A DNA stretch of 32,000 nucleotides from Mycolicibacterium smegmatis (lineage in GTDB: Bacteria > Actinomycetota > Actinomycetes > Mycobacteriales > Mycobacteriaceae): assembly GCF_001457595.1 (NCBI RefSeq), contig NZ_LN831039.1, positions 900,001 through 932,000 on the forward strand, read 5' to 3'. Positions 8,971-27,037 of this stretch are shown here, piece after piece. How positions within the stretch are numbered: the first letter of the stretch is position 1; each line of letters begins with the position of its first letter. Made by a program: the position numbers and the translations under genes. The notes below the pieces were generated by a model that worked only from the letters and a program-made list of their open reading frames with translations, did no database searches and was not told where the DNA came from.

Positions 8971-9030
8971 TCGAGTGTGCGTGTGGGGCGGGTTTTCAGC
9001 TGGCTTTCCGCCGTGAGCGCACGCTGGATT
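8971..9030. repeat. Solo degenerate copy of the 82-bp ackA/pknG intergenic repeat
   Basis: tcgagtgtgcgtgtggggcggg (8971-8992) is identical to the first 22 nt of the units at 9957, 10039 and 10121. The next 37 nt or so are about 65% identical by hand alignment. It overlaps the 3' end and stop of the DUF559-like ORF. Confidence 0.6.
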
Positions 9031-9865
9031 GCCTGGCGGTCAACGCAGTCCGGATTCTGCGGAGGATTTCGGCGGTGCCGTCCTCGGCGACCACACGGAT
9101 CACGATCCAGCCGAGTTCAGCGAGCAGCTCGAGGCGCCGGATGTCCCTGACGTACTGCCGTCGATCGGTGCGGTGCTGATCTCCGTCGTACTCCACAGCG
9201 ACCATCCACTCCTCCCAACCCATGTCGAGATAGGCCAGCGGTGTACCGTCATCCGCCAACACCGGGATCTGGGTGGTGGGCTTGGGAAGCCCGTCACGGA
9301 CGATGAGCAGACGCAGCCAGGTTTCTTTCGGGGATTGTGCGCCGGCATCAACCAATGGCAGCGTCGCCTCCAGCCGACGCAGACCGCGTGCGCCGCGATG
9401 GCGGTTGGCGAGATCCGCGATGTCGGCGACCGTGCACCCCGTGGCTCGGAGCAGCGCGTCGAGGTGGGCGACTCCGCGATTCGTCGGCGAACGGCGTCCG
9501 ATGTCGAAAGCTGTTCTGGCAGAAGATGTCAGCAGCATCCCGCCGATGACGACCGTCTCGCCAGGGAGCAGGGTGTCGCGTCGGGTCGTGATGCCACGCG
9601 GTTGGCGCGGGTTGTCGTGGATGAGGTCAATGGGAATTGACGGGTCGATCCATTTGGCGCCGTGCAATGCCGCAGCGGCGGGCCCGGCGATGACAGCGCG
9701 GCGGCCGGACCACAGCCACGCGCCGACGGTCCGCTGCTCAAGTGTCGGCTCGGAGGTCTTGGGCACATACACATTGGGATACAGCGTTCTGAATCGCGTG
9801 CGCAGTTGATGGCGGTTCAATGTGCCGTCGGCAAGGGCTTCACTGCCGAGGAATGGTGCGGTCAT
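8996..9865 (-). CDS. DUF559/Vsr-like (PD-(D/E)xK-type) endonuclease-domain protein with N-terminal wHTH-like region
   Basis: 289 aa with ATG at 9865. The C-terminal part …LAYLDMGWEEWMVAVEYDGDQHRTDRRQYVRDIRRLELLAELGWIVIRV… is typical of the multi-copy actinobacterial DUF559 family. The last 12 codons or so are encoded by the repeat copy at 8971-9030. Confidence 0.75.
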   Translation of the reverse strand: MTAPFLGSEALADGTLNRHQLRTRFRTLYPNVYVPKTSEPTLEQRTVGAWLWSGRRAVIAGPAAAALHGAKWIDPSIPIDLIHDNPRQPRGITTRRDTLLPGETVVIGGMLLTSSARTAFDIGRRSPTNRGVAHLDALLRATGCTVADIADLANRHRGARGLRRLEATLPLVDAGAQSPKETWLRLLIVRDGLPKPTTQIPVLADDGTPLAYLDMGWEEWMVAVEYDGDQHRTDRRQYVRDIRRLELLAELGWIVIRVVAEDGTAEILRRIRTALTARQSSVRSRRKAS

Positions 9866-13442: not shown

Positions 13443-13541
13443 CGGTGGTCTCTTCTTCGCGCAAGCGCTCATCAGTGCTGGTCTCTTCTTCGCGCAAGCG
13501 CTCATCAGTGCTTGTCTCTTCTTCGCGCAAGCGCTCATCAT
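13438..13541. repeat. 33-bp tandem repeat (about 3.2 copies) filling the glnX-glnH junction, in frame with glnH
   Basis: Plus-strand units are ctcatcagtgctKgtctcttcttcgcgcaagcg at 13501-13533 and 13468-13500, a 30-bp variant at 13438-13467, and a partial copy at 13534-13541. On the coding strand each unit reads ATG AGC GCT TGC GCG AAG AAG AGA CMA GCA CTG (MSACAKKR[Q/P]AL). Confidence 0.9.
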
Positions 13542-17327: not shown

Positions 17328-19045
<1,718 letters not shown>

Positions 19046-19049
19046 GATC

Positions 19050-19970
19050 ATGGTGGCAATGATCGAACTCGCCGGGCTGACAAAGCTCTACGGAACCCAC
19101 CGCGCCGTCGACGACCTCAGCTTCACCGTCGAACCGGGCGTGGTCACCGGCTTCCTCGGGCCCAACGGCGCGGGCAAGACCACCACCATGCGGCTGATCC
19201 TCGGCCTGGATCACCCCACGTCCGGCACCGCGACCATCGACGGCAAGCGCTACCGCGAGCTCAAGAATCCGCTGCGCACCGTCGGCGCCCTGCTCGACGC
19301 GCGGCAGGCGCATCCCAACCGCTCGGCCCGCAGCCACCTGCGGTGGATCGCCGCGGCCAACCGCATTCCGGCGTCCCGCGTGGACGAGGTGCTGGAGATG
19401 GTCGGGCTGGCCTCGGCCGCCGACCGCAACGCCGGGGCGCTGTCGCTGGGGATGAGCCAGCGGCTGGGCATCGCCGCGGCGCTGCTGGGAGATCCGCCGG
19501 TGCTGTTGTTCGACGAACCGGTCAACGGGCTGGATCCCGAGGGCATCCACTGGGTACGCACGCTGATGCGCGAGCTGGCCGGTGAAGGTCGCACGGTGTT
19601 CGTGTCGAGCCATCTGCTGGCCGAGATGGCGAATACCGCCGACCGCCTGGTGGTGATCGGGCAGGGCAAGCTGATCGCGTCGACCACGGTCACGGAGTTC
19701 GTCAACGGCTCCGACGCCGACACCGTGCGGGTGCGCAGCCCGCAGTTGGAGACGCTGCGCGACGTGCTCTCGGACGCCGGACTCGACGTCGTCACCGAAC
19801 CCGACGGCGGTGCCCTCAACGTGCACGGGGTGGCGATCGAGGTGATCGGCGATCTCGCGGCCCGCAACGCCATCACACTGCACGAGTTGAGCCGCAGGCA
19901 GGCGTCGCTGGAGGAGGCGTACTTGAAGCTCACCGATGATGCCGTCGACTACCGGGCGGTGCAGCCGTGA
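19050..19970 (+). CDS. ABC transporter ATP-binding protein (ABC-2/DrrA-like)
   Basis: ORF 18597..19970 trimmed to ATG 19050 (MVAMIELAGLTKLYG…). Walker A GPNGAGKTT, signature LSLGMSQRL, Walker B VLLFDEP. The upstream extension overlaps the SGNH gene. Confidence 0.9.
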   Translation: MVAMIELAGLTKLYGTHRAVDDLSFTVEPGVVTGFLGPNGAGKTTTMRLILGLDHPTSGTATIDGKRYRELKNPLRTVGALLDARQAHPNRSARSHLRWIAAANRIPASRVDEVLEMVGLASAADRNAGALSLGMSQRLGIAAALLGDPPVLLFDEPVNGLDPEGIHWVRTLMRELAGEGRTVFVSSHLLAEMANTADRLVVIGQGKLIASTTVTEFVNGSDADTVRVRSPQLETLRDVLSDAGLDVVTEPDGGALNVHGVAIEVIGDLAARNAITLHELSRRQASLEEAYLKLTDDAVDYRAVQP

Positions 19971-20725
19971 GCGCGCTTGCAGCGCTGGACGCCGAGCGCA
20001 TCAAACTCTCCACGACGCGCTCGCCGCTGTGGTCGGTGGTCGGTGCCGCCGTGCTGAGCTTCGCCATCGCGGCGCTGCAGGGCTGGAGCGCCTATGGCTA
20101 CACGCCGTTGCCACCAGGCAAGGCCGCGCTGGGCGTCGCGGTGTTCGGGGTTCCGGTGCTCATGGTGCTGGCGTCGATGACCATGACGGGCGAGTACCGC
20201 ACCGGATTGATCCGCACGACGTTCATGGCCACACCGAACCGGTCCGTGGTGCTCGCCGCGAAAGCCATTGTGTGCGCCGCGTTTTCCTCGGTCGCGGCGA
20301 TCGTCATGGTGCTGGGCGCGGTGCTGGTGGCCCGGTTGTTCACCGATCCGCTGATCGCGGTGGATCTCTCGCCGACCAATCCCGCGACCTGGCAGGTGGC
20401 CGGGAGCTTCGCGTTGTATGCCGCGTTGGCCGCGATCCTCGGTGTGGCCGTCGGCGCGTTGGTGCGGTTCTCGGCGGGCGCCGTCGCGGTGCTGCTGTTG
20501 TGGCCGCTGGTCGCCGAGCCGCTGCTGGCCAACATGCCCGGCAACGGCGCCCAAATCGGGCCGTGGCTGCCGTTCGTGCACATGTACCGGTTCCTCGACG
20601 TCGACTGGTTGTTCCCGAGTTACGCCATGCCGTGGGGTCCGGTGGGGTCGCTGATCTACTTCGTGGTGCTGGTCGTGGTGGTCTTCGTCGCTGCCGTCGT
20701 GGCGCTCAACCGGCGGGATGCGTAG
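19967..20725 (+). CDS. ABC-2 type transporter permease
   Basis: 252 aa with about six hydrophobic helices. The GTG start overlaps the ATPase stop (GTGA). Confidence 0.8.
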   Translation: MSALAALDAERIKLSTTRSPLWSVVGAAVLSFAIAALQGWSAYGYTPLPPGKAALGVAVFGVPVLMVLASMTMTGEYRTGLIRTTFMATPNRSVVLAAKAIVCAAFSSVAAIVMVLGAVLVARLFTDPLIAVDLSPTNPATWQVAGSFALYAALAAILGVAVGALVRFSAGAVAVLLLWPLVAEPLLANMPGNGAQIGPWLPFVHMYRFLDVDWLFPSYAMPWGPVGSLIYFVVLVVVVFVAAVVALNRRDA

Positions 20726-20793
20726 GTCGTCCGGTTGTTGCTGAACCGCCTGCCTCTCGGCCGCTAAGCTGCTGGATAGCTTGACGGAGTCAC

Positions 20794-23166
20794 GTGTCGA
20801 GGGGGCCATCTGTGAGTGTGCTCGACGGGTTTTATTCGACGCTGTCGAAGGCTAGGCAGACGTTCGGTGAGGGACCGCCGAGTGACGGTGCGGAGTTCGA
20901 CCAGAGCTCGCAGCTTCTGCAAATGAAGGCGAATGTGGAGGCGGCGGCTCCCGACGATCGCTGGCAGGGGTCGGGTGCGAATGCCTACGCGGCGGCGAAC
21001 AGGGAGCACGCCGCGGTCTACGAGAAGCTCGCAGATCTGGACCGCAGGATGGCAGCCGAGGTCAAGAATGCTGCCGGTGTGGTGTCCAGCGGGCGCCAAG
21101 GTCTGGACTCGACGGCAAACTGGGTCAACAGCGCCGTTCAATCCCTGCCGCCCACGTCGGAACAGGACCGGGAACGCAAGCTTCTGCCGATCGCCCGTGA
21201 AGGCATCAGCCAGGTCAACGGGATCGTGCAGTCGGCCACCGCCCAGATGGTGGAGATCAAGGGTCGCATCACCGGTCTCAAGGGCGAGTACGAGGCACTG
21301 AGCAACCAAAAGTTCGCGCCGGGCGGCGACAAGTCCGAGGAGGACAAGAACGAGAAAGACGACGACGTCCAGAAGGTGACGGGCGACGACGCCGACAAAG
21401 ACGAGCGCGACGGGAAGGCGGACGGCGAAGCCTTGGCGGAACAGGCGAACCTGCCCTCGGCGCATCGTGATCCGGCGGTGCTGGATGAGGTTGCCGCGAA
21501 TCTCCCGGAGTCTCCCCTCACGGCCGAGCAGATGGCCGCTCTCGCAGCCGGTGAAGAAGTCAACGACGTCCCGAAGGAGACGCTCGACTATTACCGGGAC
21601 TTCTACAATGCCGCGGGCAAGGACGGCCTGCTTCTGCTCGACCGGCACCTGGAGTCGCAGGAGGCGGGCGGCGATGCCGAGGTAGGAGCCCAACGAGACA
21701 GGCTCGCCAACGGATTGACACTTACCAGCAACGAGAAGGTGGTTGAACTCAACCCGGACGGTTCGGTCGCGGCACGCGGTGGCTACGACCAGTTGCCGGC
21801 TGACCTGCGCGAAATGCTCGAGGTACGTCGCGCGGATCCGACCTATCCGGGTTGGGAGAATCTTGGACCTACCGATGCGAAGAACCAGCATGTCGCTGAT
21901 GTGGTGCAGTTCAGTGAGCTGATGGGTGAAGCCAACCCGGGTTACCAGCCCGGGACGAAGCTGGGCACCGAGATGTACCTGAAGTCGGCCGACATGGTCG
22001 AGAACTCCACCGGTGGTTGGGGAATGACCGATACACCACCGGAAGCCTATGAGCGCGCGGCGAGTTCGTTGGCCGAGATCGCGGGCCGCAACAACGAGTC
22101 GTCGTATCAGATCTGGTCCGGAGACGGAATGCCCGAGGGATATGACCCTAAGGAAACGGTCCGCACATTGATCGGCCACGACTGGTCGCAGAGCGGGGGT
22201 GGGGGAAGCGGTGCGGCGACCCTGCTGGACTGGATGACCGAGGACACCCAACGTCCGATCGGCGACCCCATCGGTGACCGCGCGCGGCAGGCGTTCGTCG
22301 ACCTTCCGGACTACCTGGCGCCCAGCGACACCGACCCGGTATGGGACAGCCAGCGCGACGCATTCGCTCGCAATCCTGCGATCTCTACAGAGATGAGTCA
22401 ACTTCTGGCTTCACACACTGGTGCGCTGGTGGCGCCCGGCCAGCAGAACGGCTTTGTCGACACCAGGATCGATCCGGAAGGCTATCCGCGGATCAGCGCG
22501 GACGACGCCAACCGCCTGTTGGAACTCGGCTCCTACTCCGAGGAGGGGAGGACGACACTGACCACTGCGGCCGAACCTGCCCGCATCGAAGAGTTGCAGA
22601 CAGCCATGGGGAATCACCCGGGCAACCTGGCCGACTATGTGGCCAATAGCCCCGCAGGCGCGTTGTCAGGGCGCATCGACCACGCGATGACGGAAGCCAT
22701 CACCAACCAGAACGAGGTGCTCCAGCAGGACGTCGTGGCGAAGGACGCGGTCTATCGCGCGAAAGTCGCCGGTGCCGAGCTAGCAGGCTCGCTCGCCGAC
22801 GAACTGACACCGAAGATTCCTCGTGCCGGTGAGGTCATCGGCTATACCGGGCTGGACCCGGGCGCAACTGTCGAGAACGCCATCAAGCACTTCATCGAGG
22901 CCCCCGAGTACAAAGCGCTCACGGTGCCCGACGACGACATCTTGATGGCGGGGTCGAACGTACAGGCGCAGCAGACGGTGCTGGAAGCGGCGATGAAGGC
23001 TGGTGAGCTGCCCGACGAGTTGAAGCGCGGCGATTCACCCGTACAGATCTCCGAATTGGGGCCGGACAGTCGGGCGTACCAGATCGTCCAGAAGTACCTC
23101 ATCGAGCGTGGCTTGGCACAGTATGTCACCGACTATGCGCAGAGCTACTCAATCGCCCTGAAATAA
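20794..23166 (+). CDS. Large protein with an EspA/EspE-like (WxG) N-terminal domain, putative type VII secretion substrate/effector
   Basis: 790 aa. GTG 20794 has GGAG 4 nt upstream. Residues ~55-100, DDRWQGSGANAYAAANREHAAVYEKLADLDRRMAAEV, match the W-x-G…N-R-x-H…ELADLDR core I recall from EspA (Rv3616c) and EspE. An acidic low-complexity linker follows (GGDKSEEDKNEKDDDVQKVTGDDADKDERDGKADGE, about 21320-21430). The remaining ~580 aa are a helical-looking domain of unknown function. Confidence 0.8.
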   Translation: MSRGPSVSVLDGFYSTLSKARQTFGEGPPSDGAEFDQSSQLLQMKANVEAAAPDDRWQGSGANAYAAANREHAAVYEKLADLDRRMAAEVKNAAGVVSSGRQGLDSTANWVNSAVQSLPPTSEQDRERKLLPIAREGISQVNGIVQSATAQMVEIKGRITGLKGEYEALSNQKFAPGGDKSEEDKNEKDDDVQKVTGDDADKDERDGKADGEALAEQANLPSAHRDPAVLDEVAANLPESPLTAEQMAALAAGEEVNDVPKETLDYYRDFYNAAGKDGLLLLDRHLESQEAGGDAEVGAQRDRLANGLTLTSNEKVVELNPDGSVAARGGYDQLPADLREMLEVRRADPTYPGWENLGPTDAKNQHVADVVQFSELMGEANPGYQPGTKLGTEMYLKSADMVENSTGGWGMTDTPPEAYERAASSLAEIAGRNNESSYQIWSGDGMPEGYDPKETVRTLIGHDWSQSGGGGSGAATLLDWMTEDTQRPIGDPIGDRARQAFVDLPDYLAPSDTDPVWDSQRDAFARNPAISTEMSQLLASHTGALVAPGQQNGFVDTRIDPEGYPRISADDANRLLELGSYSEEGRTTLTTAAEPARIEELQTAMGNHPGNLADYVANSPAGALSGRIDHAMTEAITNQNEVLQQDVVAKDAVYRAKVAGAELAGSLADELTPKIPRAGEVIGYTGLDPGATVENAIKHFIEAPEYKALTVPDDDILMAGSNVQAQQTVLEAAMKAGELPDELKRGDSPVQISELGPDSRAYQIVQKYLIERGLAQYVTDYAQSYSIALK

Positions 23167-23187
23167 CTTGAGTACAAGGGAGACCTG

Positions 23188-23913
23188 TTGATAGAACCGA
23201 CGCGACGGCGATCGTCTGTGGATGCGTCAGGCGCGTTGACCCGTATGAGCGTCGTCATACTGGCTGCGGTCGCGGTTGCCTTCTTCGGCGGATGCGGTAC
23301 CGACACTGAATTCTCGACACCGACGACGTCGGCTGCGGTCGATTTCCCCTATCCGCCGTTTGAAATTCGGACCGACATTGCGGTCCCGCTTCCGCCTCGT
23401 CTCAGAGACGCTGCCCAGTTCGCGCTGGACATGTCGGTCGACGACCGCCGGAAGAACGATCCCAACGACGACGAAGCTGACCGACGGTTCCGAAGCCAGA
23501 TCGCGCCGGAGGCCGACATCGCGGACCTTCCGCCAGGCCCCGATACTGCTATCGGAGAGACGGGGGGCGCGCTTCACCGTGCGGTGGGTGCTCGGGGTCT
23601 ACCCGATGACACGGTCGAAGTGACGATTTGTCAGTACGACACCCCGGGTCTCTACACGAAGTTGAAGGACGGACGGATTGTCAGCTCCGACATTCCGATG
23701 AGTGTCCAACGTCCTCTGGTGCAGTGGACCGGTCGGCCCGCAGCTGATGGCACCACTCCTGCTGGCCCTCGGTGGCTTTGGGTTGGCGAGACCGCTTCGT
23801 ACAACCTGCCTGCCCAACAAGTTGCTGAGCTTTGCGATCCGTTCAAACCCGAACCGTTCATCCAGAAGATGCCCGACCCGACGACAGCAGCATCCGCGAC
23901 GCCGAGCGGATAG
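23188..23913 (+). CDS. Hypothetical secreted/lipoprotein-like protein
   Basis: 241 aa. TTG 23188 has GGGAG 5 nt upstream; the alternative ATG is at 23245. The N-terminus has a basic region (TRRRSS), a hydrophobic core VVILAAVAVAFFGG and then Cys (a non-canonical lipobox). I recognise no family. It starts 21 nt after the 790-aa gene. Confidence 0.6.
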   Translation: MIEPTRRRSSVDASGALTRMSVVILAAVAVAFFGGCGTDTEFSTPTTSAAVDFPYPPFEIRTDIAVPLPPRLRDAAQFALDMSVDDRRKNDPNDDEADRRFRSQIAPEADIADLPPGPDTAIGETGGALHRAVGARGLPDDTVEVTICQYDTPGLYTKLKDGRIVSSDIPMSVQRPLVQWTGRPAADGTTPAGPRWLWVGETASYNLPAQQVAELCDPFKPEPFIQKMPDPTTAASATPSG

Positions 23914-24271
23914 CGTAGTCAAGTTAGATTCCGTCGAGCATCTAGAGAAATGTCAGCCTTTGGAAGGCCAGCTAAGTACGTCACCGGTTACGGCCAGAGC
24001 TATTCGTTCGTACTGAAGGGTTAGCAGTGGAAACGCTACCGAATCCGATTCTGTGTTGAGCATGACCAATTGGCGAAAGAGCAGCGTGCTCGGGCCGAAT
24101 CCGGTGCCGGGTATACCGGTGCCACCGCCGACAAGGCCCCTGTCGCGCCGTCGACCACTGGTTCCGAGAACACCACTGCATCGCCCGACACCGCGCCGGT
24201 GCGTCCGCCGACCAGAGTTCCCACTGATTCGTCAATTCTGTTGTGACCGTTGAGTTCCTCGACCTGAAGGT

Positions 24272-24502
24272 GTGTTGATGAGTTTGCCTCCCCCGCCGGA
24301 TTCGTTTGGTTCTCAGCCGCCGAATGGTGGTGGGGTTCCGCCGCGGGGTGGGGGGCCTGGTGGTCAGGGATCGTATGGTGCGCCGCAGCCGGGTCAGCAG
24401 CCGTATGGGCAGTATCCGGGTCAGCCTGGTCAACCGCAGTGGGGTCCGCCGCCGCAGCAGTGGGGAGCTGCGCCGCCACCGCCGAACAGGGGGGCGCGGT
24501 AA
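24272..24502 (+). CDS. ORF fragment: Pro/Gly/Gln-rich N-terminal region of the disrupted membrane protein (would be called a small hypothetical protein)
   Basis: Track ORF of 76 aa. The likely ATG is 24278, with GAAGG 7 nt upstream. It ends at TAA 24500-24502, just after a G6 run (24489-24494). Removing one G fuses it in frame to the TM segment. Confidence 0.4.
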   Translation: MLMSLPPPPDSFGSQPPNGGGVPPRGGGPGGQGSYGAPQPGQQPYGQYPGQPGQPQWGPPPQQWGAAPPPPNRGAR

Positions 24503-24594
24503 ATGGGTGCTGATCGGCTTGGCGTTAGTCGCGGTGATCGCGTTGAGCATCGCGGGCACTGCGGTGGTTCTGAAATCAGACTCTGGCGACGGTA

Positions 24595-25023
24595 ATGGTT
24601 CGACGCCCTCGGCGCAGCGATTCAGAATTCGCAAGCGCCAACGACACGGGCCCGGCGAACCTCATCACCGAGGATCCGACGTGTGGGGCGTGGGGGCGTA
24701 TTTCCCGCGAGTTAAGCACCGCGACTAAGGCCGTGGATTGGGCTGAGCGCGATGACTCCGTTCCTGCAGATGCGTGGGACCCGGATCTGCGTGCAGCGTA
24801 CGAGGCTGCTGGGCGGGCGATGAGTAATGCGGCAGAAGGTGTGCGGGCGCTAGTTAGTGCGACGCCCCACCGGGTTATGCGAGAATTATACGGCCAATTC
24901 AATACTTTCACGAATGGCGTCGTGGAAAAAACTCCTATTTACACTGCGGCTGATTCTGAGTTAGCCACCATGTCCACTACAATTGCCTCCGCGTTATCGT
25001 CAATATGTTCTGCCGTCCAATAA
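24595..25023 (+). CDS. ORF fragment: first extracytoplasmic domain of the disrupted membrane protein (would be called a hypothetical protein)
   Basis: Track ORF of 142 aa. It has no signal peptide or TM of its own. The sequence from SEFASANDTGP…EDPTC onward looks like the ectodomain of mycobacterial Pro-rich membrane proteins. It ends at an in-frame TAA, after which the same frame continues. Confidence 0.4.
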   Translation: MVRRPRRSDSEFASANDTGPANLITEDPTCGAWGRISRELSTATKAVDWAERDDSVPADAWDPDLRAAYEAAGRAMSNAAEGVRALVSATPHRVMRELYGQFNTFTNGVVEKTPIYTAADSELATMSTTIASALSSICSAVQ

Positions 25024-25187
25024 CAAGTTGCAGCGGCAATCGCGCCGATGCTGCCTCCCTTGGATGGTACGTCAGGATCTGGCGGGGCTAACGCGGCCGC
25101 TGACCAAGAACCATTTTTAGACAGTTCCAGTTCGATCTGTTCAGACTGGAAAGCAGAGGTTGAGGATTCTAACAAAAACTTAGCAGA

Positions 25188-25538
25188 TTGCAAGGAATCG
25201 ACCCCGCAATTCCAGCAAGTGCTTGGACTCCAGAGCAGCGCTCCATAAACGAAGCGCTAAGGCCGGTGCTTGTGGAAGCTGCTAACAATTTTGAAACCAT
25301 TGGGAAACGTGCGAACGGTAACATTAATGATTTCTTGGCGGAACCTGCCACCTTAGACCAAAATCTAAAGACAGTAATTCACGGCTCGAAGTCTCCAGAG
25401 GCCGTTAGCGACATCCAAACCGCAATACCGAGGGACAACGCGGCGCCAGGTTTGGCTCCAGTGGTTTCTGATTCTGGCCAAAAAAATGCGATTCATGGGA
25501 CTCGCGAAGTTGAATCCAGTTCTGCACCAGAACCTTAG
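25188..25538 (+). CDS. ORF fragment: second repeat domain of the disrupted membrane protein (would be called a hypothetical protein)
   Basis: Track ORF of 116 aa starting at TTG. The region is AT-rich (about 44% GC by hand count over 25261-25380). Its sequence parallels the second half of the 24595-25023 domain. Confidence 0.35.
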   Translation: MQGIDPAIPASAWTPEQRSINEALRPVLVEAANNFETIGKRANGNINDFLAEPATLDQNLKTVIHGSKSPEAVSDIQTAIPRDNAAPGLAPVVSDSGQKNAIHGTREVESSSAPEP

Positions 25539-25606
25539 GTAGTTGAACCAAAGGTGCCAGTCGAACCCGTAAAGGACTTCGTTCCTGTGGCACCTGGACC
25601 CATCAG

Positions 25607-27037
25607 GTGCCTCATGCACAACAGCCGGGAGCTCCTGCGAAACCGGCGATTTCCGGTTTGCCAGGTTCCGCTCAGGCACCCGCCACGCCGAGCGGGCCAG
25701 GCATCGGTGGATCCCCCTCCGCTCCTGCCATGCCTTCAGCCCCCTCCGCTGGCGCAAGCCCACTGAGCAGCAGCAGCGGACTGGCCTCGTCCGGAACGAG
25801 CGGGGCCGAGCGAGCAGCAGACGCCACGGCCGCCGCCAGCGCTGCCGGCCCTCGTGCGCCGGTCGATCCGCTGCAACAGTTCGCGCAGTCGTTCGCGAAC
25901 TCGTCGAATCCGTCGATCCAGCCGGCATCCACGTACTCGCCGCCGATGTCGTTGGAGCCGCTCGACACCACGCCGAATCCGAGCACGCCCGCCGCCGCGA
26001 CGGTGACGCCGAGCAGCAGCCAGGCGCCGGCGGCGCCGCCACCCGCAGCGCCAACAGGCGGCGGCGGCACGCCGACCGGCATGGGCGGCGGCGGAATGGG
26101 TGGTGGCATGGGCGCGATGCCGCTGGGGCCCCGCCGACTCCGCCACCAGCGGCGCCCACCCCGGGTTGCACCCACGGCGGCCCCACCGCCCCCACCGGTG
26201 GCGCCGACGCAGGCTGGTGGCGCACAGGTCGCGCCGATCCCGGTATCGGCGGCTCGAGCCGAACGCGAAGCCGCCGCCGCGGCACGCCGGTCTGGCGTAG
26301 AGCCGTTGGAGATCGCGCGACGCGTCGCCGCGGTGTTGAACGCCGGGCCGCGTGAGCCGAAGTTCATGTGGCTGACCGGTTTGACGACCGACGGAACGAT
26401 CGTCGTTGCCAACAACTATGGCTTGGGCTACATCTCGCCGTGGGTGAAGCTGCCGGCGCCGGTGAAGTTCGCCTTCGCCGATGAGTCGATTCCGATTGCG
26501 GAGCGGGCGAAGTGGGTGACATTCCCGATCGCGGCGCTGCAAGGTTGGGCCGAGTCGCACCACACGGCGTTGCGGGCGGTGATCGCCATGGAGGACCAGT
26601 TCGAGGGATTCGACTCTGGTTGTGCCGAGATCAAGCTGCAGCCCGACGACATCCCCACCGCCGGGAAGATGGAGGGCCGCTCGCGGTTGGAGGTGCTCGC
26701 CCCTGACGTCGCGATACGGTTGGCGAGTGTTCCGGACACTGCGCTGGCCGACCTGTTGCCCCCACCGCCGGCAGACCCGGAGCCACCGGAGGACCGGCGA
26801 ATGAACCTGCTGATGGAGGTCTTCCGGCCTCTGCTGAGCAGCGACTCTGGGCGAATTCCGTTGCAGCTCAAGGCTATGGCCGAGTTCGCCGATCACATGC
26901 AGAAAATGGCGCTGCACAGTGCCTACACCGCGGCCGATGCGGAGGCCCTGCGTATCGACACCGAGGACGCCATCTACTGGCAGCACGTGGGTGTGCTGTC
27001 ACGCGACGCGCTGGGAACCATGCCCGAAGGCTCCTAG
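25607..27037 (+). CDS. Pro/Ala/Gly-rich protein with an EspK-like C-terminal domain (the 5' end may be truncated or frameshifted)
   Basis: 476 aa from GTG 25607, with no SD. The first ~210 aa are low complexity (PAPS…GGGMGGGMG…PPPPP). The C-terminal ~260 aa read IPVSAARAEREAAAAARR…LEIARRVAAVLNAG…LTTDGTIVVANNYGLGYISP…ALRAVIA…LQPDDIPTAGKMEGRSRLEVLAP…LADLLPPPP…IYWQHVG. This is collinear with the C-terminal domain of ESX-1 protein EspK (Rv3879c) as I recall it. There is no WxG-like N-terminal domain. Confidence 0.7.
   Translation: MPHAQQPGAPAKPAISGLPGSAQAPATPSGPGIGGSPSAPAMPSAPSAGASPLSSSSGLASSGTSGAERAADATAAASAAGPRAPVDPLQQFAQSFANSSNPSIQPASTYSPPMSLEPLDTTPNPSTPAAATVTPSSSQAPAAPPPAAPTGGGGTPTGMGGGGMGGGMGAMPLGPRRLRHQRRPPRVAPTAAPPPPPVAPTQAGGAQVAPIPVSAARAEREAAAAARRSGVEPLEIARRVAAVLNAGPREPKFMWLTGLTTDGTIVVANNYGLGYISPWVKLPAPVKFAFADESIPIAERAKWVTFPIAALQGWAESHHTALRAVIAMEDQFEGFDSGCAEIKLQPDDIPTAGKMEGRSRLEVLAPDVAIRLASVPDTALADLLPPPPADPEPPEDRRMNLLMEVFRPLLSSDSGRIPLQLKAMAEFADHMQKMALHSAYTAADAEALRIDTEDAIYWQHVGVLSRDALGTMPEGS

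Follow-up and report, generated by a model that had tools for sequence, protein, structure and literature searches.

An EspA/EspE-type protein with a modular helical cargo and a neighboring lipoprotein in Mycolicibacterium smegmatis

The stretch of DNA analyzed here, 32,000 nucleotides of the Mycolicibacterium smegmatis contig NZ_LN831039.1 (positions 900,001 to 932,000 of its forward strand; hereafter the window), contains a gene whose product joins an N-terminal domain of the EspA/EspE type, via an acidic linker, to a large helical cargo. We consider it probable that this protein is exported by a type VII secretion system and operates in the cell envelope as a non-enzymatic, all-helical cargo that works with a cognate lipoprotein encoded 21 nt downstream. 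The gene is an ordinary, already-named member of a functionally unexplored modular family of the Mycobacteriales: NCBI lists the exact protein as "EspA/EspE family type VII secretion system effector", and UniRef names the family as well. A preliminary description of this DNA had proposed a layout of export domain, linker and large cargo. Our analysis bears this layout out, and comparisons among the relatives of the protein support its reading as a modular effector. The features on which the argument relies all lie on the forward strand:

20799..20805: Shine-Dalgarno sequence GAGGGGG, 6 nt 5' of GTG 20812, kept in M. goodii and M. porcinum
20812..23166: effector gene encoding EspA/EspE-N, TPR_23 and module B, likely start GTG 20812, 784 amino acids (aa)
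20812..21309: export domain at the N-terminus (aa 7-172) with helical hairpins H9-24, H38-50, H60-116 and H123-170
20863-21108: Pfam EspA_EspE match, aa 24-105
20962..20970: WxG motif W57-Q58-G59, with W57 and G59 invariant in 21 orthologues
21310..21405: disordered acidic Lys/Asp/Glu linker, aa 173-204, predicted local distance difference test score (pLDDT) below 50 at 174-202
21406..22098: cargo module A (aa 205-435), all-alpha apart from a single small beta-hairpin, about the first 190 TPR_23 positions
22099..23163: cargo module B, aa 436-790, all-alpha, the TPR_23 tail plus 310 aa without a Pfam model
23188..23913: gene for the cognate lipoprotein of 241 aa, signal peptide ending in the lipobox FFGG-C36, whose Cys is encoded at nt 23293-23295; C148 and C216 conserved

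The gene and its export domain

The open reading frame (ORF) 20794..23166 is present on the forward strand, with a translation identical to the one quoted in the preliminary description. It is a coding sequence and not a chance ORF because the guanine-plus-cytosine (GC) content by codon position is 0.67/0.45/0.78, the protein has 86 database homologues, and the ratio of nonsynonymous to synonymous substitution rates (dN/dS) against the M. goodii orthologue is 0.083. Hence, it is a genuine gene under purifying selection. The 545-aa ORF on the opposite strand (20764..22401) was considered and set aside as a shadow ORF. Although the ORF spans 790 codons, as had been described, its product is likely shorter. 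The true start is likely GTG 20812, which yields 784 aa, and the start at 20794 adds six codons. We moved the start because the N-terminus reads M-S/G-A-L-D-G in all 20 orthologues inspected, because the Shine-Dalgarno sequence before GTG 20812 is conserved across three species, and because the exact 784-aa product is recorded in the M. smegmatis genomes CP082846.1 and CP089215.1; the 790-aa form has no exact database record. Residue numbers follow the 790-aa numbering (start 20794). The whole protein is acidic (isoelectric point, pI, 4.4), contains no cysteine and no hydrophobic segment, and is matched by no NCBIfam model.

The N-terminal domain forms a helical hairpin of the EspA/EspE type and carries a WxG motif. 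Pfam PF18879 (EspA_EspE) matches aa 24-105 with E=5e-24 and 84.9 bits (cut-off 27), covering positions 1-83 of 84 in the profile, so that the resemblance to EspA and EspE proposed in the preliminary description is supported. In an AlphaFold2 model built on a 66-sequence alignment, the domain is composed of helices at 9-24, 38-50, 60-116 and 123-170, and the WxG motif is placed between H38-50 and H60-116. The orthologue profile gave a weak match to WXG100 EsxA structures over aa 30-100 (3zbh, E=0.006). The domain is followed by disorder at 174-202, which corresponds to the acidic linker noticed in the preliminary description; with a pI of 4.2, this segment varies in both length and sequence among the orthologues. 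Pfam returned no LXG domain at E<=0.1, and the trafficking domain is of the EspA_EspE type. A search with the N-domain alone retrieved 10 short or fragmentary proteins and no further cargo classes.

A helical cargo and its companion lipoprotein

The region behind the linker had been regarded as an uncharacterised C-terminal domain without motif or catalytic signature. This view holds in part. The region is not wholly unnamed because Pfam PF23275 (TPR_23), described there as "ESX-1 secretion-associated protein EspA-like, TPR repeats", matches aa 241-480 (E=2e-49; 169 bits, cut-off 27; positions 4-234 of the 234 in the profile) and because NCBI and UniRef name the family; aa 480-790, by contrast, are covered by no Pfam model. 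The AlphaFold2 model, with a pLDDT of 85.4, is nearly all helical at aa 205-790, where the pLDDT mostly exceeds 90. Module B opens with a motif around W464, DWSxxGxxGxGAATLLDW, and across the wide family only P335 and W464 are invariant. Sequence and profile searches of the PDB found no relative of modules A and B, Foldseek against the PDB returned only generic armadillo/HEAT repeats (best E=3.4e-3, template-modeling score <=0.26), and Foldseek against BFVD gave no match at E<=1e-3. The predicted all-alpha fold accordingly has no solved-structure relative in these searches, and neither Pfam, NCBIfam, the PDB sequence search nor Foldseek detected a toxin or enzyme signature, in line with the initial impression that a catalytic signature was lacking. 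The protein also contains no hydrophobic hairpin.

The wider distribution of module B tells where the cargo probably acts. A profile of aa 436-790 (threshold E<=1e-3) matched 601 cluster representatives at 50% identity, most of them proteins of 700-870 aa that share the architecture of the window protein. A second, short class of 298-365 aa comprises proteins in which the match begins at residue 35-50 and Pfam recognizes just the last ~45 TPR_23 positions; all 15 of those fetched carry a lipoprotein signal peptide and a lipobox. One such module B lipoprotein is encoded two genes 3' of the M. smegmatis paralogue P0039, to whose aa 400-583 it is 31% identical (E=3e-18). Module B would thus be exported in two ways, behind a lipoprotein signal peptide and as a type VII fusion, and we therefore conclude that the cargo probably works outside the cytoplasm, in the cell envelope. 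These lipoproteins are the strongest evidence that we can offer for an envelope-acting cargo.

The small envelope protein gene that had been noticed 21 nt past the effector stop, beginning at 23188, encodes a true lipoprotein that has been inherited together with the cargo in Mycolicibacterium, Mycobacterium and Nocardia, regardless of the type of N-domain. The lipobox cysteine is aligned in 20 of 25 members of the family (of the rest, three are truncated at the N-terminus and the FFGG-C36 of the window is one column off), and C148 and C216 are nearly invariant in the family. The lipoprotein directly follows the cargo-bearing gene in all four relatives compared, at identities of 88% in M. goodii (syntenic locus), 60% in M. 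porcinum (different chromosomal site), 45% in Nocardia brasiliensis and 31% in Mycobacterium sp., the latter two with a different N-domain on the effector; locus tags indicate the same adjacency in three further genomes. Its structural model (pLDDT 76.6) is alpha+beta and predicted to be NTF2-like, Foldseek gave only weak NTF2-like, SnoaL, VirB8 and TcpC matches (E>=0.013), and a PDB sequence and profile search found no match. A possible homology to the 272-aa lipoprotein of the paralogue was rejected, as nothing aligned beyond the signal peptide.

Comparison by domain separates the relatives into three groups, here with identities relative to the window protein in the order N-domain, module A and module B:

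Orthologues by cargo: 37-64%, 60-82% (their best-conserved part), 47-61%
Nocardia and some Mycobacterium homologues: 13-23%, 41-70%, 37-66%
Paralogues: 56-73%, 17-23%, 13-20%

For the cargo, identity is 37-50% in the Nocardia-type homologues and 14-23% in the paralogues. The second group carries a different, weakly WXG100-like N-domain in front of a recognizable cargo, and the paralogues combine a related N-domain with different C-domains, a combination that the preliminary description had suggested looking for. The cargo types found on EspA/EspE N-domains are TPR_23, Abhydrolase_8 (PF06259) and ~280-aa tails without a Pfam match. The paralogues P0039 and P0046, for instance, are 78% identical over aa 1-179 and share nothing thereafter, one continuing as TPR_23 and the other as Abhydrolase_8. 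From such comparisons it is apparent that N-domains and cargo-plus-lipoprotein cassettes have been recombined within the family. Searches for phage or plasmid relatives found none; the one "plasmid" match is a 2.66-Mb Nocardia replicon.

Proposed function and competing explanations

In the model that we favor, the N-domain would pair with a PE/EspC-like YxxxD partner encoded elsewhere, for which the EspC-domain protein of a paralogous M. smegmatis locus, carrying Y85xxxD89, is a candidate; by analogy to the EspA-EspC and EspE-EspF pairs, a small partner of the EspC/EspF type is to be expected. Export would proceed via ESX-1 or ESX-4. The exported cargo, presumably a binding or scaffolding alpha-solenoid and not an enzyme, would then bind the lipoprotein on the outside of the plasma membrane, where the latter might serve as anchor, receptor or neutralizing partner. 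Several observations weigh against this model. A tblastn search with the EspC-domain protein and a scan of small ORFs found no gene for a PE/EspC-like partner in the window, nor does a YxxxD/E motif follow the helical hairpin in the protein itself. The exact SigM -35 motif GGAACCG was not found upstream on the forward strand. We found no secretion data for the protein or members of its family in the literature, and the attribute "non-enzymatic" follows solely from negative results (Pfam, PDB and Foldseek, with P335 and W464 alone invariant).

Versions with a non-EspA-type N-domain (L006, L018/L019) do possess a candidate partner: a gene of ~100 aa that abuts or overlaps the effector start on its 5' side and encodes a YxxxD motif in Mycobacterium or FxxxD in Nocardia. 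Their operons also contain a DUF3558 lipoprotein gene and, in Nocardia, EspG. With respect to regulation, SigM of M. abscessus directly induces an operon for WXG100, EspA-like and lipoprotein-like proteins along with ESX-4 substrates, and the same regulon includes an operon for a helix-bundle alpha/beta hydrolase and LppV (PMC13491425). The sequence TGAACCG at 20742-20748 of the window was rejected as a SigM motif; it deviates from the motif at one position, and M. goodii does not share it.

The paralogous locus of M. smegmatis, with the gene order fadD, LOG, AAA_22 gene, effector, lipoprotein gene(s) and EspC-domain gene, bears directly on the question of function. The effector alleles of two strains (L002, 10001-14180, and L012, 8001-11098) are 100% identical over aa 1-447 and ~60% identical thereafter. 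The next lipoprotein is 59% identical between these strains, the flanking EspC-domain protein 95% and the flanks 95-100%. At the same site, another Mycolicibacterium (L011, 5001-8078) carries EspA_N fused to Abhydrolase_8 (526 aa), an LppA-type lipoprotein and an EspC-domain gene. Judged by these alleles, the distal module and the lipoprotein at this locus are replaced together as one cassette. One strain carries an extra module B lipoprotein at the paralogous locus.

Such exchanges are reminiscent of polymorphic antibacterial toxin-immunity pairs, and the most serious competitor of our model assumes just this: the effector would be a type VII-delivered toxin directed against the envelope of neighboring mycobacteria, and the lipoprotein its periplasm-facing immunity protein, comparable to Tle-Tli or the streptococcal LXG pair TelC-TipC. 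The shared N-domain with swapped cargo speaks for this idea, as do the alleles of the paralogous locus that diverge beyond residue 447 to the same degree as their lipoproteins but not as the EspC-domain gene, the Abhydrolase_8 cargo with its LppA-type lipoprotein at the same site elsewhere, and the fact that lipoproteins beside divergent cargo are mutually non-homologous. The gene in the window behaves differently. No toxin domain or fold was detected, M. smegmatis strains differ at only 1-4 of 784 residues, and all domains of the protein are under purifying selection of the kind experienced by housekeeping neighbors (dN/dS against M. goodii of 0.106 for module B; comparators thiG, 0.041, and the ABC-2 permease gene, 0.089). 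Hypervariability or diversifying selection was accordingly not seen at the window locus. The pair is vertically kept across genera at 45-60% identity, unlike hypervariable toxin-immunity pairs, and module B also occurs as a self-anchored lipoprotein, which would be odd for a toxin domain. The likeness to LXG-type or other polymorphic toxins that the preliminary description had drawn is therefore not sustained for the window copy, which has neither an LXG nor a toxin domain and is not polymorphic, and we rate a toxin-immunity pair as rather unlikely; for the family as a whole, the cassette exchange at the paralogous locus would keep the analogy alive.

Strain variation adds one further feature:

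21815, forward strand: 1-nt deletion in the mc2 155 lineage, which leaves two ORFs, MSMEI_0781 (375 aa) and MSMEI_0782 (421 aa), in place of the gene

This deletion is present in mc2 155 and in most sequenced samples; the gene is intact in MKD8, in other isolates and in the window, whose DNA is of a natural-isolate type and not that of mc2 155. Because the copy of the mc2 155 lineage is frameshifted, the gene is dispensable in the laboratory. The lipoprotein gene MSMEI_0783 is intact in this lineage despite the frameshift of the effector gene, a combination that is uninformative either way for a toxin-immunity pair. Literature searches with the locus tags MSMEG_0795-0806 and MSMEI_0781-0783 yielded nothing relevant.

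A second alternative draws on the genes that follow the lipoprotein gene:

24272-25538, forward strand: degraded gene, in three frames with an in-frame stop
25607-27037, forward strand: EspK paralogue outside esx1; aa 233-466 match the C-domain of M. tuberculosis EspK (8AKO_B, E=3e-64)

The degraded gene encodes a Pro/Gly/Gln-rich N-terminus, one transmembrane helix and two tandem ~130-aa Cys-containing domains. A sequencing error can be discounted because three M. smegmatis assemblies agree here without gaps at 99.8-100% identity, except that one of them carries an ISL3 insertion; intact homologues lie directly 5' of EspK-like genes in four other mycobacterial loci. In this arrangement, the two genes resemble the published description of the kin-identity gene Msmeg0070 beside Msmeg0071, the so-called mid genes (PMC9040860), a likeness by description. 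The window protein could then be a cell-surface recognition or contact factor that serves cell-cell communication, kin discrimination or envelope remodeling in the ESX-1/ESX-4-dependent conjugation of M. smegmatis. Its gene has as neighbors the EspK paralogue and the degraded gene for the Pro-rich transmembrane protein, which fits this proposal, and so do the exchange of allelic cassettes between M. smegmatis isolates at the paralogous locus, the presence of an intact gene in the recipient MKD8 against a frameshifted one in the donor mc2 155, and the requirement of similarly designed SigM/ESX-4 regulon genes for conjugation (PMC13491425). The support is, however, purely circumstantial: the EspK-like cassette is unlinked to EspA-TPR genes in other species, and the window locus itself is not polymorphic. 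We deem a role in recognition improbable.

Least of all do we expect an unsecreted, cytoplasmic TPR-like scaffold or chaperone whose EspA-like N-domain merely docks to ESX components or substrates; alpha-solenoids are typical adaptors, Foldseek gave generic armadillo/HEAT matches only and a gene for an EspK-type chaperone lies nearby, but module B is found behind lipoprotein signal peptides, the obligate neighbor encodes an exported lipoprotein in which a disulfide pair is conserved, and the protein is acidic and Cys-free as ESX substrates are, so that this explanation is very improbable.

A broader and decidedly tentative proposal assumes a polymorphic ESX effector system of environmental mycobacteria and Nocardia, in which EspA/EspE-type or other WXG-type domains would deliver interchangeable all-alpha cargo. 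Each cargo module would be matched to a cognate lipoprotein and exchanged with it between strains as a cassette, and the purpose of the system would be contact-dependent antagonism or kin recognition tied to ESX-1/ESX-4-dependent conjugation. The window gene would be one conserved allele, which the donor mc2 155 has lost through its frameshift and the recipient MKD8 has kept. We put this forward, taken as a whole, as possible and no more than that.

Relation to known systems and genomic surroundings

EspA (Rv3616c) and EspE (Rv3864), ESX-1 substrates of M. tuberculosis and M. marinum, share with the window protein the ~85-aa EspA_EspE domain with its WxG motif over nearly the full profile length. 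Canonical EspA and EspE are proteins of ~400 aa that are not known to possess the TPR_23/module B cargo. Their genes have an adjacent partner gene, in contrast to that of the window protein, which sits in an island between thiG and lpqL, outside any esx locus or espACD operon. Closer in design are the M. abscessus operons mentioned above: Mab_1286c-1285c-1284c (WXG100, EspA-like, lipoprotein-like) follows, by description, the same grammar of export domain plus cargo and then lipoprotein, and Mab_0251-0252-0253 (helix-bundle alpha/beta hydrolase and LppV) matches the architecture of the sibling with hydrolase cargo (PMC13491425). The window gene differs from these operons in that no SigM -35 motif was found for it and no gene for a WXG100 or PE partner lies upstream.

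LipY and CpnT, with PE/PPE- and Esx-linked cargo, likewise combine a helical type VII domain, a linker and a C-terminal domain destined for the envelope or the exterior. The cargo of the window protein, however, is an uncharacterised all-alpha module and not a lipase or NAD+ glycohydrolase, and its partner is a lipoprotein and not a cytosolic antitoxin such as IFT. The LXG toxins of Firmicutes (TelC-TipC) possess the same plan of a targeting N-domain for type VII secretion, variable C-terminal cargo and a cognate envelope protein encoded downstream, and the paralogous M. smegmatis locus shows a comparable cassette replacement; the window protein has no LXG domain or toxin fold, its gene is conserved, and its host is a diderm with the ESX-type T7SSa. 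In the Tle-Tli pairs of type VI secretion systems, an envelope effector is again followed immediately by a periplasm-facing lipoprotein. The sibling with Abhydrolase_8 cargo and an LppA-type lipoprotein fits this comparison best, whereas the window protein uses another secretion system and contains no hydrolase.

Only a few cargo-bearing type VII substrates of mycobacteria have been assigned a function, and few effectors are known for ESX-4 or, in non-pathogens, for ESX-1. The family described here is large (the 601 module B clusters), limited to Mycobacteriales in the matches seen, and has its partner lipoprotein built in. Natural swaps delimit its units, namely export domain, linker, module A and the cassette of module B plus lipoprotein, and it offers a tractable M. 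smegmatis model for the targeting of ESX substrates and for their role in the envelope. As the mc2 155 copy is frameshifted, work on the gene calls for an isolate such as MKD8.

The region 18272-26900 contains, in this order, genes for a GDSL hydrolase, an ABC ATPase and permease, the effector, the lipoprotein, the degraded membrane protein and the EspK paralogue. It is flanked by housekeeping genes, on the 5' side pta-ackA, pknG, glnH and thiE/O/S/G and on the 3' side two lpqL-type M28 peptidase genes and a type III polyketide synthase gene. GC content is 0.59-0.62 at 23-26 kb, where the lipoprotein gene and the degraded gene lie and the EspK paralogue begins, and 0.64-0.72 elsewhere. Synteny with M. 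goodii extends up to 23913 and resumes at 26817; between these points (L001, 13225-16602), M. goodii has a second paralogue of the lipoprotein, 58% identical, together with an IS21 element, and it keeps a 130-bp remnant of the EspK-like 3' end. In CP089215.1 (L010, 14761-16792, near position 25446 of the window), an ISL3 transposase gene and a PRiA4_ORF3 gene are inserted in the degraded region, and the same pair recurs at the paralogous locus (L002, L003). The EspK paralogue, named "secretion protein EccK" or EspK by NCBI, has a Pro/Ala-rich N-terminal half, and its start is disputed among gene callers (197 to 513 aa). We rejected it as a dedicated chaperone of the window protein: it is absent at the orthologous loci of M. 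porcinum, Nocardia and Mycobacterium, and EspK-like loci in other species occur without EspA-TPR genes.

Two minor observations concern the 5' flank. A 289-aa ORF between ackA and pknG (8996-9865, reverse strand) gave DUF559 and REase_MTES_1575 matches below the Pfam cut-offs. The glnH-like solute-binding protein gene on the reverse strand contains at its 5' end (13446-13540) a 33-bp tandem repeat of 2.9 copies with a 98% match.

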